Virus record (IMG/VR): IMGVR_UViG_2917855067_000003
Span: 1-10,082 of that record
Source of the DNA: a virus
Taxonomy: Duplodnaviria > Heunggongvirae > Uroviricota > Caudoviricetes
Direction: 5' to 3' (one strand)
Length of the DNA: 10,082 nt
In this document: positions 3,086 to 10,082 of the stretch, one piece after another
Position numbering within the stretch: the stretch's first letter is position 1
How the letters are laid out: each line of letters opens with the position of its first letter
Made by a program: the position numbers and the translations under genes
The notes under the pieces: generated by a model
Databases searched by the model: none
Told to the model about the DNA's origin: nothing
The model's input: the letters and a program-made list of their open reading frames with translations, nothing else

Positions 3086-3288
3086 AAGGGCAACCTCCTG
3101 TGAATAGCGGTTATTGCCACCACCGGAGTTCCTACGCTCATGGGTGGTGACCCGAACGGGGGTAGGAATACCGGCTTCACAGAATACCGGCCAGCCCGAA
3201 AGCTGCCCCGCCCGGACCACCATTATCTGACAGGGGCTATGGAATAAGCACCACAGCCCGAAAAATGGGTGTGCCTGAGCAACGACGT

Positions 3289-3311
3289 AAAAAAAGACGC
3301 ATGGCGCGTCT
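3289..3311 (-). terminator. rho-independent terminator for leftward transcription (P4 timm-like position)
   Basis: On the minus strand: stem AGACGC / GCGTCT (plus 3295-3300 and 3306-3311), 5-nt loop, followed by a run of 7 U (plus-strand A-run at 3289-3295). Confidence 0.5.
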
Positions 3312-3367
3312 GTTGTCGCCTGTGAATTACACGGGTTCCTACGCCCGGCTGCCGATTTTGCGGCAGC
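3289..3367 (-). ncRNA. candidate small structured RNA (position analogous to the P4 CI / C4-type immunity RNA)
   Basis: About 350 nt lacks a convincing coding region between alpA/vis and the next SD-bearing ORF. The minus-strand transcript would start with a 7-bp hairpin (plus 3348-3354 / 3361-3367), contain further imperfect stems, and end at the terminator. A possible -10 (TATAGT, plus 3374-3379) lies just upstream. No homology check was possible. Confidence 0.25.
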
Positions 3368-3438
3368 GGGAAAACTATACCTGGAAACGGCGAAAAGAAG
3401 CAAGCCAGAAAAAGGGGCTGTTTGCTGAACGGTCATCA

Positions 3439-4170: not shown

Positions 4171-4242
4171 ACGGCAATGAATCGTGTTGTTGTGCAGGAG
4201 GCGTCAGAATCATTTCAGGTTGAACACACGGAGAACCTGAAC

Positions 4243-4986
4243 ATGAAACCCGAACTCATTATCAAAGCCATGCAGACCGTTATCAGTAAACAGGATGAAG
4301 GCGCGGAACAACGCATTGCCGGTGCGCTGGCCGCACTTAACGAAGCAAAAGATGCACACACGGCCAGCATGGGTAAACTCAGCGACATTGAGGCTTCCAT
4401 TCAGCGTTGTGAGCAGGAACGACAGACCGCCCTCAGTGAAAGTGCACAGGCCGAACAGGACTGGCGCAGCCGCCTTCGAACTCTGCGCGGCAACCTCACT
4501 CCTGAACTGAAAGCTGAACACAGTAAACGTATCGCCAGCCGCGAACTGGCTGATGAGTTCACCGGTCTGATTACCGAGCTGGAGAAAGACAAAAGTCTCG
4601 CCATGCTTGGCGCATGCTCCTCCGGTACGGCTTATATCAGCGCCCATGAAAAAGCATTCACCACTTACGCCAACAGCGAATGGAAGAAGGTGCTGGCCGG
4701 TATCAGCCCCGCACTGTTACGTGCCTTCCTGTTGCGTATACGGTCGCTGGAAATGAGCGGAGAAACCTCATCGCGTGCGACCGCGACACGTGAGCTGGGT
4801 GATGCCCTGAATCTGCAGTCAGCCCTGTATCATTTTGATATGGAGCAGGAGCCGGTCCTGTCCGTAACGGGCATGAATCGCCCGGTCATAACCGGGGTTG
4901 ATATGGCGCTGTTAAGAAGCCCGGCCAGACGGATGAAGCTTGCCGCTGAACTGGCTGCAAAATCCCACGAACAGGCAGAGGGCTGA
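4243..4986 (+). CDS. sid: Sid-like capsid size determination (external scaffold) protein, 247 aa
   Basis: Assigned by position as first gene of the sid-delta-psu operon, by its charged, helix-rich composition, and by a length near P4 Sid (about 244 aa as I recall). Start at 4243 has SD GGAG 9 nt upstream; the ORF-track start at 4177 would lie inside the promoter. Confidence 0.6.
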   Translation: MKPELIIKAMQTVISKQDEGAEQRIAGALAALNEAKDAHTASMGKLSDIEASIQRCEQERQTALSESAQAEQDWRSRLRTLRGNLTPELKAEHSKRIASRELADEFTGLITELEKDKSLAMLGACSSGTAYISAHEKAFTTYANSEWKKVLAGISPALLRAFLLRIRSLEMSGETSSRATATRELGDALNLQSALYHFDMEQEPVLSVTGMNRPVITGVDMALLRSPARRMKLAAELAAKSHEQAEG

Positions 4987-4989
4987 ATT

Positions 4990-5229
4990 ATGTTTCACTG
5001 TCCGTTCTGCAAAAAGACCGCGCACGTCCGTACCAGCCGTTATCTGTCGGAAAACGTCAAACAGCGTTATCACCAGTGTACCAATATCGAATGTTCGGCC
5101 ACTTTCCGCACCATCGAGTCGGTTGACGGTGTGATACGTGCCGCACCGGAGAAACCTGACCCCACCCCGGTGACGCCGCTGCCGCCGCGTAAAGAACAGG
5201 GCTGCTACAGCTCGCCGTTCCGGCATTAA
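4990..5229 (+). CDS. delta: Ogr/Delta-family zinc-finger late-gene transcription activator (single-domain, 79 aa)
   Basis: Translation MFHCPFCKKTAHVRTSRY...YHQCTNIECSATF has the Ogr/Delta Cys4 arrangement (C4, C7, C30, C35). It starts 4 nt after the sid stop, with SD GAGGG upstream. Confidence 0.85.
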   Translation: MFHCPFCKKTAHVRTSRYLSENVKQRYHQCTNIECSATFRTIESVDGVIRAAPEKPDPTPVTPLPPRKEQGCYSSPFRH

Positions 5230-5244
5230 TCAGGAGAGAGACAC

Positions 5245-5811
5245 GTGACCACTATGACAATACAGCAGGCCTTTGAGGCCTGTCAGGCAAACAAAAACAC
5301 CTGGCTGACACGTAAAGCCGAACTGGCTGACCTTGAACTTGAATACCGTGAACAGCTCCTTGCTGGTGACGAACAAATCCCGCGCAAAATGCAGGATTTG
5401 CGCGACAATATCGACGTGAAAAAATGGGAGATTAATCAGGCCGCCGGTCGCTATATCCGCTCACATGAGGAGGTGCAGCACATCAGCATCCGCAACCGGC
5501 TCTATGACTTTATGCAGCAGCACGGCGCGGAGCTGGCCGCCACGCTGGCGCCTGAATTGATGGGGTATAATGAACAGCTTCCCGTAGTAAAACAGAGCGC
5601 CATGCAGCATTCGGTTGATTATCTGCGTGAAGCCCTGTCAGTGTGGCTGGCCGCAGGTGACAAAATTAATTATTCCGCGCAGGACAGCGACATTTTAACG
5701 GCCATCGGATTCAGGCCTGATGCGGCTTCGCGGGATGATAATCGAGAGAAATTCACCCCGGCACAGAACCTGATTTACACCCGCCGACGTGCAGAACTGG
5801 TCGCACGGTAG
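5245..5811 (+). CDS. psu: Psu (polarity suppression protein; Rho inhibitor / capsid decoration), 188 aa
   Basis: Translation (..IQQAFEACQANKNTWL.., ..NQAAGRYIRSHEEVQHISIRNRL.., ..KINYSAQDSDILTAIGFRPDA..) closely resembles P4 Psu as I recall it. A GTG start at 5245 sits 8 nt after SD GGAGAGAG; the alternative ATG at 5254 is too far from the SD. Confidence 0.9.
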   Translation: MTTMTIQQAFEACQANKNTWLTRKAELADLELEYREQLLAGDEQIPRKMQDLRDNIDVKKWEINQAAGRYIRSHEEVQHISIRNRLYDFMQQHGAELAATLAPELMGYNEQLPVVKQSAMQHSVDYLREALSVWLAAGDKINYSAQDSDILTAIGFRPDAASRDDNREKFTPAQNLIYTRRRAELVAR

Positions 5812-5857
5812 CACGCGAAAAAATCCCCGAAAATTCCGCTATTTTTCCTGAAAAAAG

Positions 5858-5884
5858 CCATGCATCCATAAGGTGCATGGTTTT
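5858..5884 (+). terminator. candidate rho-independent terminator of the sid-delta-psu operon
   Basis: Stem CCATGCATCC / GGTGCATGG (one wobble, 4-nt loop) followed by TTTT at 5881-5884, about 47 nt after the psu stop. Confidence 0.45.
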
Positions 5885-5984
5885 GCATGCAAATCCCCGT
5901 ATTTTATTTCCCCCACCACGCCAGTACCGGCGCGGCCTGAGCCGGTTCATGCACCTGCATTAAAAGTGACCTCTTAAGCGGGCA

Positions 5985-6003
5985 GGCGTGGCGGGGAGAG
6001 CAT
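5985..6003. other. cos-like site (resembles the 19-nt P2/P4 cohesive end)
   Basis: GGCGTGGCGGGGAGAGCAT matches GGCGAGGCGGGGAAAGCAC at 16 of 19 positions. That P2/P4 sequence is recalled from memory and not verified. The site is downstream of psu, where P4 has cos. Confidence 0.4.
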
Positions 6004-6269
6004 TGCGCGCTGGAATAATAATTAATTATTTATTTTCTCGCTCTGTGTTTGTCATTGATGAGTGGCAATTCGTTGACATGCTGGAGAGATATAATGCTGT
6101 TTAAAAGGAAAGAAGCACTTCTGAGGCTTTTAGGTTAGAGGGGAAGTTAAGGCCGCCTTGAGGCGGCGAAAATTAGTCATTTTGGGTATCGAGGAGTAAT
6201 ATTAGGCTGAATGCCACATGCTCCTGAATTAGAACCTTGAGTGCGAGTTGCTACATAAATAAATGGAGC

Positions 6270-6950
6270 TTAAAAATGATTAATCAAGATTTGATTTTTT
6301 TTAATTGCTCGTCTACTCCAGTGCTCTGTGATGTTTTGAGTGAAGTCGGGACGAACTATTTTTGCTCTAAAGTCCACTGCTTCAAGAGATTCTACTCTCA
6401 AATATATTCCTTCTGATATTTCATCGCTGAATTTTGATTTTTTTATATAAGAAGATAACTTGTTTAGTTCAAAGAAACCTTCGTCAAGAAAAGGAACGCA
6501 ATGAAGGTTTGCATTTGATATTATTTCGTTTCTTTGAGGAAGTGGTAAAAATATTTTTCTTTTCTTATCGAATACATCAAATGCTAAAAAATAGTCAGGT
6601 AAGCGGGTGTAGTGAATAGAATGTTTCGCATAACACCATTCCCCAAATATAATGTATTGGTCTCGAATGTAGTCAAAAAGGTTGTCGCGGTTGTAATTTA
6701 ACCAGTCAGGAAGCATTTTCCATTGGCCATTAAAAGGTTGATGTAAAAAAGAACCCCTATTTTGAAGGAGTAAGTCTGCATTACCATTAAAGGAAATGCC
6801 TAGATTAGCTCCGTCAATTTTCTCTTCTATTATGGTTTTTTTAGTTGAAAGCAATAATCGTTCTTTATCTGAAATGACCTTGTCATCCCTGACGTTAGGA
6901 TGGTAAAAAATATGTGGAGTGGACGGGAATTTATATAGTTCATCTTCCAT
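6270..6950 (-). CDS. Rnl2-type RNA-ligase-like nucleotidyltransferase (standalone adenylyltransferase domain, about 226 aa)
   Basis: Translation carries ligase motifs in the right order and spacing: motif I EEKIDGAN (KxDG), motif III FGEW, motif IIIa FDVFD, motif IV EGIYLR, motif V RAKIVR. ATG at 6950 has SD AGGAAG 9 nt upstream; the ORF-track GTG at 6977 has no SD. It is AT-rich and overlaps the upstream gene by 11 nt. Confidence 0.7.
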   Translation of the reverse strand: MEDELYKFPSTPHIFYHPNVRDDKVISDKERLLLSTKKTIIEEKIDGANLGISFNGNADLLLQNRGSFLHQPFNGQWKMLPDWLNYNRDNLFDYIRDQYIIFGEWCYAKHSIHYTRLPDYFLAFDVFDKKRKIFLPLPQRNEIISNANLHCVPFLDEGFFELNKLSSYIKKSKFSDEISEGIYLRVESLEAVDFRAKIVRPDFTQNITEHWSRRAIKKNQILINHF

Positions 6951-7479
6951 TTGGAAACTTCCTATTATATGTATCACTTATGAGTTTTTCGTCAGCAAAA
7001 TGAACCGTTATGCCTACATCAGCAAGAGATTCTTTCCAGCCCCACCATTTACTATCAGTTGCTTGAAAAATAGGCGGTTTGTCTACGTGTGCGTATGACG
7101 TGGCTACAAATTTTCTATCCGATAAATCAAAGTTTGTCAGGCCTTCATGTACAGGGAACTCCTCATAGCTAGTTTCGGTTTTTGTAATTCTTACGATGTT
7201 TTTATCAGGGAATTTCCATTGGTTAGTGTAAATCCATTTCATAAATTTATCACCAACGCCAGGGGCTCCACTCATGCTTAAATTTGAGCGATACTCTTCA
7301 ACTATTTCTTGTGCTTCATCAATAACTAACCCACCATTTGCAATTGCCTTTTCTATTATTTCAACACACTCTAAAACACAGCTTAGAATATCATCTGGAA
7401 TGTTTTTTATATCTGTGTGCATATTAGCTGTAACAGCAACATTTGTATCAATTAAAAAAGCAGCAGGTAATTTATTCAT
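6940..7479 (-). CDS. PIN-like domain protein (putative nuclease), 179 aa
   Basis: N-terminal AAFLIDTNVAV resembles the first PIN strand with its conserved Asp; further acidic positions (DEAQE, ATDSKW, ISDTY) fit the PIN pattern. SD GAAGG upstream; start overlaps the ATPase stop (ATGA). The domain call is by eye. Confidence 0.6.
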   Translation of the reverse strand: MNKLPAAFLIDTNVAVTANMHTDIKNIPDDILSCVLECVEIIEKAIANGGLVIDEAQEIVEEYRSNLSMSGAPGVGDKFMKWIYTNQWKFPDKNIVRITKTETSYEEFPVHEGLTNFDLSDRKFVATSYAHVDKPPIFQATDSKWWGWKESLADVGITVHFADEKLISDTYNRKFPNGR

Positions 7480-8861
7480 TTAGATGTACCTTCTTTTTCT
7501 TTTATTCTTCTTTTTAACGCTGATTTTGCTTGCTCTGTAATGTCTGTTAATTCATCACCAAAGAAATTATCTGGCCAGTTGAGGATATTTCCAAATGTAT
7601 CGATTTGCAACGGTGTTAATTTTGGGGTTGAAGATGAAATGTCAGAGAAGTACGCGGAAACTTCCTCGGATTTTATTTTGTCTTCTGCTATTCTCCTTTG
7701 CAGTCTGCGAAGGAAATGCTCTGAGTGAGTTTCTATAATTAGCTGTATGCCTCTTGATTTTCCATTTTCTCGTGAACGGATAACATCGATCATAACATCA
7801 GCAAGCACTGATTGTGCTTTTGGGTGTAAATGAATTTCGGGTTGTTCCATCAAAATTATTGAGCCTGGTTGAGCGTAAAAGCATTGTACTAGAACTGGAA
7901 GAACCTGAGAAACCCCAAACCCAACATCTGGAAGGTCTACCCACTGTTTAGAGCCTTTAGTTTTAACTTTGACTTCATATTCTTGACGATGTTCTGAAAT
8001 TGCTTTTACAGAAAAACTATCAATTAAGTCCATTTGTTTTAATTTTTCAGCGATGATTTCTTCTAATGGTTTATTTTTCTTTTTATAATCAAGGCCGATT
8101 CTTCTTTCTTTTGATGAAAGAATGGCGGAAATTGCATTTTCACCTGCATAACCTACGCTTTCTGGTGAAATTCCAGTCCATGGATATAATCGTTCAGGCT
8201 TATTTCTCATTGGCCCTAAGTAACATACTGAACGGAATAGCTTTTCATGCATTAGATTGATGTCTTGCACAAAATCAGCATTTTGATGGTAAGCTACGAC
8301 TTCCTCAGGGAAACCATAAAATCTAACTACATCTTTTATCGCCCAAACCCTACCCTTCTGTCGAGTTAGAGTGAAATTGTTAGTTTTGATTTTATAATTT
8401 GACTTAGCGTCACGAACAAGTCCTATAGATACATCATCTTTTTCTTTCTGATAGAATGTATATGAGAATCCATTGACATATAAGCTATTATTCTCAGCAT
8501 TAAAAGATATCTCAGATTTAAAATGGCATATTTTCGATAAGGATATAATGCTGTCTAATGATGATTTAGAGTATAATTCATCTATTGACCAAGAGTACTC
8601 AAATGAGATGTTCTTGTTAACGTCTCTCATGTTAACCATGTCTTGAAATGAGCCCAATTGTACTGCTGAGTTTTTACCTCCTGGGTAGAATGGGGTTTTT
8701 CTATCAGATGATTCAACCGTTTGTTTAAGCATCATGAGAAGCTGGCCAATACTAGATTTACCAGAGCTATTTGTTCCAAAGAAAAGAGTGATAGGTGACA
8801 TTTTGATTTCACCTGTATCAGTCCAAACCTTAAAATTTTCTACTTTTAATGTTTTAAACAT
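7476..8861 (-). CDS. ABC-type ATPase (AAA_15/AAA_21, OLD/RecF-like), 461 aa
   Basis: Walker A GTNSSGKSS near the N-terminus, Walker B region ILMEQPEIHLHP and H-loop ETHSEHF near the C-terminus, with a long insertion between, as in defence-associated ABC ATPases. SD AAGGA upstream; ATG is only 3 nt after the int stop. Confidence 0.85.
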   Translation of the reverse strand: MFKTLKVENFKVWTDTGEIKMSPITLFFGTNSSGKSSIGQLLMMLKQTVESSDRKTPFYPGGKNSAVQLGSFQDMVNMRDVNKNISFEYSWSIDELYSKSSLDSIISLSKICHFKSEISFNAENNSLYVNGFSYTFYQKEKDDVSIGLVRDAKSNYKIKTNNFTLTRQKGRVWAIKDVVRFYGFPEEVVAYHQNADFVQDINLMHEKLFRSVCYLGPMRNKPERLYPWTGISPESVGYAGENAISAILSSKERRIGLDYKKKNKPLEEIIAEKLKQMDLIDSFSVKAISEHRQEYEVKVKTKGSKQWVDLPDVGFGVSQVLPVLVQCFYAQPGSIILMEQPEIHLHPKAQSVLADVMIDVIRSRENGKSRGIQLIIETHSEHFLRRLQRRIAEDKIKSEEVSAYFSDISSSTPKLTPLQIDTFGNILNWPDNFFGDELTDITEQAKSALKRRIKEKEGTSK

Positions 8862-8864
8862 TTC

Positions 8865-10082
8865 TTATCCTTTGCTTTTAGATTTTATGATGGAAGCATT
8901 TTGGATTTCATCACCCCACCAAGCTAATAAATCACTACGTTGTTTTAAATAATTTGCACGGTTATATGCTCTTCTGACTTCATTTTTATCTGTATGTGCC
9001 AAAGATGATTCAATTATATCAGCGTTGAAACCAGCTTCATTCATAGTTGTACTCGCGATAGAACGTAATCCATGTGCGACTAATTTACCACCATAACCTA
9101 TTCGCTTCAAAGCGGCATTAGCCGTCTGGCTATTCATAGGTTGCTGTGGATCATTTCTACTTGGAAAAATATATTCTCTATGTGCACTGATTGGCCTCAT
9201 TACTTCCAGAATCTCTAATGCTTGAGTAGAAAGAGGTACGATGTGTTCCCGTTTTGCCTTCATCCGTTCGGCTGGGATCGTCCAGAGTTTGGCATTGAGA
9301 TCGATCTCTGCCCATCGTGTACCTGAAGCCTCAGAAGGTCGCACGAGAGTCAGAAGCTGCCATTCAATAAGACAGCGAGTCGAAACAGACAGATTCGACA
9401 TCACCAAAGAGCGCATTAGCTTCGGCAATTCTTCCGGCCGAAGGGTCGGCATGTTTTGCTTTTTTGGTTTCTCAAATGCCATTCCGACACCTGATGCCGG
9501 GTTTGCATCAATCAGGCCAGTGTTGACGGCGTAGATCATGATTTCGTTAATACGTTGTACCAGGCGGCGAACCGTCTCTAATGCGCCACGTGCTTTGATT
9601 GGCTCCAATGCTTCAACTATCGTTCTGGCCTTAATTTCCTGAACAGGTATTGCGCCTATTGCGGGGAACACGTCCTTATCTAAAGAGCGCCATATATCTT
9701 TCGCGTAGTCTTCAGTGACGCTTTTGCTCTTCATTTTGAACCAGTTGGCGGCCACAGTTGAGAAAATGCTATCCAGCTCAATCTGACGCTGTTCTGATGC
9801 CTGCTCTTGTTGCTGTTGCGGATCCATACCCTGCGCGAGTGTGGTTAAGTGCTGGTCGCGTATCTGACGAGCTGCTGCGAGAGTAAGGGCAGGGTATGAG
9901 CCGAGACTCAAATTAGTTCGGCTGCCACTGACCGGACGTTGATAGCGGAAGCGCCAGAGTTTTTTACCGGTGGTTTTGACGAGCAAGAACAGGCCGTCAC
10001 CATCATGAAGGGTGAAGTCTTTTTCCCGAGGTTTGGCTTTAAGGATTTCGTTGTTAGTGAGGGGGCGTGTGAGGCGCGCCAT
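8865..10082 (-). CDS. int: P4-type tyrosine integrase (405 aa)
   Basis: N-terminus MARLTRPLTNNEILKAKPREKDFTLHDGDGLFLLVKTTGKKLWRFRYQ is the P4-integrase arm-binding domain; C-terminus has HGLRSIAST and RRAYNRANY (catalytic Tyr). The start codon is the last 3 nt of the window. Confidence 0.95.
   Translation of the reverse strand: MARLTRPLTNNEILKAKPREKDFTLHDGDGLFLLVKTTGKKLWRFRYQRPVSGSRTNLSLGSYPALTLAAARQIRDQHLTTLAQGMDPQQQQEQASEQRQIELDSIFSTVAANWFKMKSKSVTEDYAKDIWRSLDKDVFPAIGAIPVQEIKARTIVEALEPIKARGALETVRRLVQRINEIMIYAVNTGLIDANPASGVGMAFEKPKKQNMPTLRPEELPKLMRSLVMSNLSVSTRCLIEWQLLTLVRPSEASGTRWAEIDLNAKLWTIPAERMKAKREHIVPLSTQALEILEVMRPISAHREYIFPSRNDPQQPMNSQTANAALKRIGYGGKLVAHGLRSIASTTMNEAGFNADIIESSLAHTDKNEVRRAYNRANYLKQRSDLLAWWGDEIQNASIIKSKSKG

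Follow-up and report, generated by a model that had tools for sequence, protein, structure and literature searches.

The 19 nt at positions 5985-6003 (+) of the window (the whole 10,082-nt stretch of DNA that was analysed), with the sequence GGCGTGGCGGGGAGAGCAT, were studied as a candidate cohesive end and very probably form the cohesive end within the cos packaging site of a P4-like satellite. This reading is based on sequence homology, position, conservation of the flanks, an exact boundary and the distribution of the allele, all of which were established here. The functional site as a whole probably covers about 150 bp (roughly 5860-6010). The main value of the result lies in confirmation, since it places the island firmly within the P4-like family, and it also fixes the edge of an exchangeable defence slot to the nucleotide, at 6010/6011.

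The cohesive end of P2 (GGCGAGGCGGGGAAAGCAC; cosL 1-19, identical in P4) and the window 19-mer agree at 16/19 positions, which confirms the likeness that an earlier note on this DNA had described. This is the single match to the P2/P4 end with three or fewer mismatches in the whole window, and dinucleotide-preserving shuffles of the window produced such a match in 0/200 cases. The cohesive end of 186 (GGCGTGGCGGGGAAAGCAT) agrees at 18/19 positions, and so 186 appears as the closest reference for the segment, closer than P2/P4. Furthermore, each base of the 19-mer has its counterpart in the annotated cos 1-19 of P2, 186, PSP3 and EtG. Regarding this alignment, the homologous 19-nt cohesive end expected of a P2/P4-family cos is present, and 5985-6003 (+) can be described as the predicted staggered-nick interval, equivalent to cosN, with the allele T5/G14/T19.

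The gene context is that of a P4-like satellite. The window presents the P4-like order of alpha primase, C4/CI immunity RNA, Ash, AlpA, Sid homologue, Ogr/Delta, Psu and int, with Pfam matches for Psu, Ogr_Delta, Ash, primase domains and integrase. The alpha primase-helicase (about 10-2335, -; Pfam primase domains) is followed by the C4/CI immunity RNA with isrK and the a1b1 targets (3140-3380, -; Rfam), the Sid homologue (4177-4986; 28% identity to P4 Sid, E 9e-24), Ogr/Delta (4990-5229; Pfam) and psu (5245-5811, +; PF07455, E 4.9e-88), a polarity suppression and capsid decoration gene that is the last backbone gene before cos. The tyrosine integrase gene (8865-10082, -; PF00589, PF22022, PF13356) forms the far edge of the cargo slot. 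By its core gene set and gene order the window is assigned to the P4-like satellites, with the alpha gene frameshifted. The Rfam scores at 3140-3380 (-) were 78 bits for the C4 antisense RNA, 77 bits for isrK and 50 bits for the a1/b1 target element; C4 is the P4 CI-type immunity RNA, and a P4-type RNA immunity module is present in the window. A remnant of a P2-like helper prophage was also considered as the source of the site, and it was ruled out by the flanking Psu, Delta, Sid, alpha and C4 RNA and by the absence of a portal gene on the right.

The window sequence is identical to part of contig PDIE01000013.1 (GCA_004745295.1), where the island adjoins smpB and int lies on the ssrA side. 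The neighbouring recN gene of this contig is 94-96% identical to E. coli recN, and we read this as a lineage of Escherichia that lies somewhat apart from typical E. coli.

Concerning the position within the satellite, the distance from the end of psu to the 19-mer is 173 nt in the window and 164 nt in P4, and it is constant (175-205 nt) in the 87 IMG/VR satellites with the same 19-mer. The blastn alignment with P4, whose length is 11,624 bp, stops at P4 11623, which is window 5983; therefore, P4 base 1, the first base of the P4 cohesive end, corresponds exactly to window 5985. The claim that the site sits where P4 has cos is borne out in this way.

The likeness extends to the flanks of the 19-mer. 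When the circularised cos junctions of P4, 186 and P2 were aligned to the window, common blocks were found far beyond the 19 nt, and the consensus sequences of satellites and helpers agree from about -113 to +26, so that the sharing of the flank between satellites and helpers goes beyond the core. The conserved 55-bp cos core was placed at 5956-6010 (+), where TGCATTAAAAG...AAGCGGGCA is followed by the 19-mer and then by TGCGCGC. This placement derives from a conserved block of 29+19+7 nt, whose length agrees with that of the "55-bp core sequence" of P2-family cos, which passages of PMC5694545 and PMC9594776 attribute to Ziermann & Calendar 1990. The core of the window is identical to that of P2 at 45/55 positions, to that of 186 at 48/55 and to that of P4 at 43/55, and P2 and 186 also share 48/55, which equals the value between the window and 186. 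Most core positions are conserved in at least 95% of the sequences among 80 distinct satellites and 15 helpers, and the cos core of the window is identical to the consensus of the 80 satellites. Hence, the conserved 55-bp core of the P2/P4-family cos is present as well. The earlier note had proposed to align the flanks with P2, P4 and P4-like islands and had named the lack of conserved recognition elements as the outcome that would speak against a cos site; the elements are conserved, and that outcome is absent.

Several elements can be distinguished within this region. The 19-mer lies between the halves of an imperfect inverted repeat. The left half, GCGGGCA (5978-5984, +), is located beside the predicted top-strand nick and is invariant in the profiles, and the right half, TGCGCGC (6004-6010, +), is located beside the predicted bottom-strand nick and contains the last conserved bases before the cargo. 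The reverse complement of the right half, GCGCGCA, matches the left half at 6/7 positions, and the two halves could represent the two nick half-sites. Upstream there is a cluster of TGCAT motifs (5860-5890, +) starting at 5861, 5874 and 5884, that is, -124, -111 and -101 from the 19-mer, as well as a proximal TGCAC/TGCAT pair (5950-5960, +) starting at 5950 and 5956 (-35 and -29). The register of these five TGCAY motifs is kept in 68-80 of the 80 satellites and in 9-14 of the 15 P2-like contigs, with 69-78/80 satellites and 9-14/15 helpers for the three TGCAT of the upstream cluster, and 0/500 shuffles reach five TGCAY within 110 nt. In the alignment, P4, 186 and P2 also retain the upstream TGCAT motifs, which are candidate terminase-binding repeats. 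Moreover, a GC-rich imperfect palindrome, CGCCAGTACCGGCGCG, lies within the cos flank at 5919-5934 (+), from -66 to -51; it is conserved in the satellites and helpers with the same allele and is present in 186 and P4 and absent from P2.

Neither promoters nor terminators were found in a scan of both strands of 5700-6400, and the Rfam scan detected no RNA family near cos, its sole matches being the P4 immunity RNAs at 3140-3380. A mechanical ORF of 65 aa (5753-5950, -) overlaps the cos flank, and the homologous cos region carries an annotated 'hypothetical protein' in several deposited phage records. These ORF calls across cos are probably annotation artefacts over a cis-acting site.

To the right of the core, the conservation among satellites ends abruptly at 6010/6011, 7 nt past the 19-mer, so that the conserved sequence finishes with the 19-mer plus TGCGCGC. 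In the 80 distinct satellites with the allele of the window, conservation reaches at least 95% at nearly all positions between about -30 and +25, and from +27 on it is about 0.35-0.4, which is the AT-rich background. The collapse at +26/+27 is common to satellites of all three alleles, including the P2/P4 allele. P2-like phages have a moderately conserved right side, toward the portal gene, and a variable far left side. The blastn blocks that cross the 19-mer stop at 6010-6012 in 69 of the 108 IMG/VR loci. The psu-cos region was found by megablast in 259 of 5,426 complete E. coli genomes, and the homology stops at window 6008-6014 in nearly all the matches listed. Altogether, homology is lost at 6008-6014 in about 259 E. 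coli islands and 108 IMG/VR loci, and homology with other satellites returns at about 8910-8960, on the integrase side. The GC content is 0.533 for 5812-6010, 0.398 for 6011-6269 and 0.354 for 6011-8864, and hence the drop to AT-rich DNA that had been noticed to the right of the site is real (0.533 to 0.354). As for the proposal that the site marks the left edge of the cargo, the conserved flank with differing cargos behind it stood up to the comparison, and the exact edge had to be moved from 6003 to 6010/6011.

The AT-rich variable cargo slot, or defence hotspot, extends over 6011-8864 (-). In the window it holds a three-gene operon with overlapping ORFs (6270-8861, -), formed by a gene with an RNA-ligase domain (6270-6977, -; PF09414), a HEC-03A-like gene (6940-7479, -; PADLOC HEC-03 A, E 2e-25) and a HEC-03B-like AAA ATPase gene with AAA_15/AAA_21/DUF3696 (7476-8861, -; PADLOC HEC-03 B, E 1.3e-124), the HEC-03 models in PADLOC being candidate systems only. 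Weaker PADLOC matches of the cargo were to AriA, NsnB and GajA-type ATPases, and no PADLOC match was found for the RNA-ligase gene. The cargo cassette gave a megablast match in 0/5,426 complete E. coli genomes, and the 108 IMG/VR loci sharing the cos allele include one distant relative of it (L020). The cargo of that locus has 70-77% nucleotide identity with that of the window, and the match extends into the ligase gene, which suggests that the ligase belongs to the system.

Other cargos are found behind the same flank. The island of E. coli Santai (ssrA locus, G14 allele) carries an AAA ATPase and an HNH cargo, and two islands at tRNA-Sec with the P2/P4 allele carry SIR2 or retron St85; all three diverge directly after TGCGCGC. 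A variable cassette between psu/cos and int on shared flanks, the arrangement that characterises the hotspot, is thus recognisable in these comparisons. From a practical point of view, the 55-bp core and about 100 nt upstream offer a precise anchor for the extraction of cargo from P4-like islands. A GC-rich 6-bp hairpin with a tetraloop (6152-6167; GGCCGCCTTGAGGCGGC) also lies in the AT-rich stretch that separates cos from the end of the cargo operon. It lacks a T-run and is not clearly more stable than shuffles (z -0.9 on the + strand and -2.0 on the - strand), and it may be a weak terminator or insulator.

The three differences between the window 19-mer and the P2/P4 end are at positions 5, 14 and 19, and two of them are the 186 allele. 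Eight deposited P2-like phages were aligned (P2, 186, GCS667 of Yersinia, pro483 of E. coli, ENT90 of Erwinia, RCIP0057 and Kp4852-2 of Klebsiella, and ENT4 of Enterobacter), and their 19-mers vary only at position 5 (A/T), 14 (A/T) and 19 (C/T). The G at position 14 is the allele of the window, and the other 16 positions showed no variation in any of the phages examined. Loci were also sampled through Psu, independently of the 19-mer, in 22 species genomes of about 12 genera; 21 loci contained a cos-like 19-mer, which was exactly the allele of the window in 19 of them. G14 is found in very divergent P4-like satellites, whose Psu identity ranges from 49% to 95%, in about 12 genera.

The exact 19-mer occurs in 108 IMG/VR contigs, 87 with Psu on the left and 19 P2-like. 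The latter, predicted prophage contigs that serve as the examples of G14 helpers, have a gpQ portal homologue to the right, which lies at 190-204 nt in 13/19, as in P2. In six of the P2-like G14 contigs (L031, L032, L064, L077, L079 and L093) the portal gene is located 1.8-2.9 kb to the right of cos, so that some G14 helpers appear to have extra DNA inserted between cos and the portal gene. A search of 50,697 deposited phage records gave no exact match to the G14 allele over 26 nt. At best 25/26 positions agree, in 186, PSP3, SEN1, EtG and ENT90, with position 14 as the sole difference, and in 186, PSP3 and EtG the annotated cohesive ends are at the bases aligned to those of the window. T5/G14/T19 can therefore be regarded, as far as the alignments indicate, as a normal and widespread variant, one base from the 186/PSP3 cohesive end. 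Since it appears to be common, old and shared with helper-type phages, impaired packaging caused by the three mismatches is unlikely. The suggestion that the mismatches may affect packaging by a P2-type terminase found no support, as they fall on the naturally variable positions 5, 14 and 19 and the allele is that of 19/21 loci; they are a standard allele, and a packaging defect should not be assumed.

Different explanations of these data have to be weighed against the reading as a cos site. That the 19-mer is a chance GC-rich match without any relation to cos is practically out of the question, given the 0/200 shuffles, the base-for-base positional homology with P4 and the conserved 130-nt flank, and nothing was counted in its favour. 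A second explanation accepts the cos site and proposes that the mismatches restrict or weaken packaging, the allele being a helper-specificity class that needs a matching cos or terminase. The distribution of alleles gives it some basis. In IMG/VR, G14 was counted in 87 satellites and 19 helpers, the P2/P4 allele in at least 20 satellites and at least 93 helpers, and the 186 allele in at least 2 satellites and at least 106 helpers, figures that come from unevenly sampled loci (L004-L384) and are lower bounds for the P2/P4 and 186 alleles. In addition, the P2 allele is the one found in the selC islands of E. coli, and G14 the one found in the ssrA lineage. However, the mismatches coincide exactly with the three naturally variable positions, and the fact that G14 satellites far exceed G14 helpers is hard to square with strict matching. 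P4, with the P2 allele, is reported to use 186 as helper, which would mean that changes at positions 5 and 19 are tolerated. Hence, we consider restricted packaging of this kind quite improbable. The P2-like helpers mostly have A14 or T14, and G14 is rare among them, so it could also be speculated that G14 is a satellite-biased cos variant that competes better for the helper terminase or defines helper compatibility. We hold this idea to be a long shot, and mere shared descent is a simpler alternative for the bias. The uneven split between satellites and helpers should thus be taken as a lead and not as a result.

Another explanation concerns the present state of this copy, and it holds that the cos site is an intact-looking relic, kept by recent descent and without current function, in an immobile satellite that can neither replicate nor be packaged. 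The alpha gene (-) reads AACGGCTGG at about 976-977, where AAC-GCTGG stands in each of the 8 closest relatives, and so has one extra base; residues 1-453 of P4 alpha consequently align in one frame of the window and residues 451-775 in another, and the alpha protein is not called in the NCBI record of the source contig. Either the gene is truly inactivated or the extra base stems from the assembly. In the former case the satellite copy may be unable to replicate after induction, and its cos may not be currently in use or mobilisable. The Santai island also speaks for a relic, as it shares the ssrA locus and the cos allele and has pseudogenised psu, int and primase. On the other side, every other P4-like gene in the window is intact, the GG doublet, where relatives have a single G, could come from the assembly, and the cos core does not deviate from the 80-satellite consensus. 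Besides, as with cosmids, DNA that carries cos does not need the replication functions of P4 in order to be packaged (PMC9594776). A relic is therefore unlikely in our opinion, and the alpha frameshift leaves the identity of the cos site unchanged. As regards the Santai locus itself (L142; E. coli O157:H16 Santai, NZ_CP007592.1, 3118401-3128168), it is a decayed P4-like remnant at ssrA with internal stops in psu and int, a truncated primase and an AAA ATPase + HNH cargo unlike that of the window. Its G14 cos allele and a neighbouring AbaSI/PvuRts1I-family endonuclease are both as at the locus of the window.

Returning to 5985-6003 as the cohesive-end segment of a satellite cos, a mechanism can be proposed in which we infer cleavage, the binding of terminase to the repeats and the identity of the helper. 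The site would be laid out with the TGCAT-type repeats and the GC-rich palindrome on the psu side, followed by the 55-bp core (5956-6010) holding the 19 nt. P4 uses the P2 terminase, and P2 and P4 share the core cos signal (PMC9122126). With an active helper of the P2/186 type, the helper terminase would recognise the satellite site as a mimic of its own cos, bind the psu-side flank and the core, and nick on both sides of the 19 nt. This staggered cut would leave 19-nt 5' overhangs and the satellite would be packaged. In satellites, every base that is conserved is at +26 or to its left. Since nothing to the right of +26 seems to be constrained, the variable defence-type cargo can begin only 7 nt beyond the 19-mer, with the hotspot immediately adjoining cos. 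Rousset et al. speculate that cos ends promote the exchange, which could account for the edge at +26; alternatively, +26 could be no more than the last base that is kept by selection.

Part of this picture is already known. Rousset et al. 2022 described the P4 hotspot directly adjacent to cos, showed in their Figure 1A which sequence near cos is conserved and which is variable, and reported a mirror-image hotspot in P2-like phages (PMC9122126). These findings on the hotspot were extended to thousands of elements in a 2026 NAR paper (PMC13586616). Because the hotspot next to cos had already been published, the cos site at the edge of the cargo slot is a correct rediscovery (PMC9122126). The uneven split of G14 between satellites and helpers is a detail that is possibly new.

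Compared with known systems, the site shares with the P4 cos (X51522 / NC_001609) its location downstream of psu, where the non-essential region preceding int begins, a homologous psu-cos spacer (75% over 165 nt), the upstream TGCAT repeats and 43/55 bases of the core. It differs from it at positions 5, 14 and 19 of the 19-mer and at the nick-adjacent bases, with A in the window and G in P4 at -1, and T in the window and C in P4 at +20. The cargo also differs, with gop/beta/cII in P4 and the RNA ligase and HEC-03-like genes in the window, and so does the location of the island, at ssrA in the window and at tRNA-Sec in the examined E. coli islands with the P4 allele. The P2 cos (NC_001895) has 16/19 bases of the 19-mer, 45/55 of the core and an identical TGCGCGC right half-site in common with the window, whereas it lacks the GC-rich palindrome at -66 to -51 and has the allele A5/A14/C19.

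The closest likeness is with the Eganvirus-type cos of 186 and PSP3, which agrees at 18/19 positions of the 19-mer, at 25/26 when TGCGCGC is included and at 48/55 of the core, and which also has A at -1, T at +20, the GC-rich palindrome and the TGCAT repeats; the difference is the A at position 14, where the window has G. Such helpers are arranged as the mirror image of the satellite, with the portal gene on the right of cos and variable genes on the left. Finally, with respect to the defence hotspot of P4-like elements (PMC9122126; PMC13586616), the cargo type of the window was found in 0/5,426 complete E. coli genomes and nothing differs in kind. The window presents the same AT-rich, defence-type cargo between psu and int, adjoining cos, in a hotspot where cargo occurs in either orientation and where SIR2, retron St85 or AAA+HNH is found behind the same flank in other islands.
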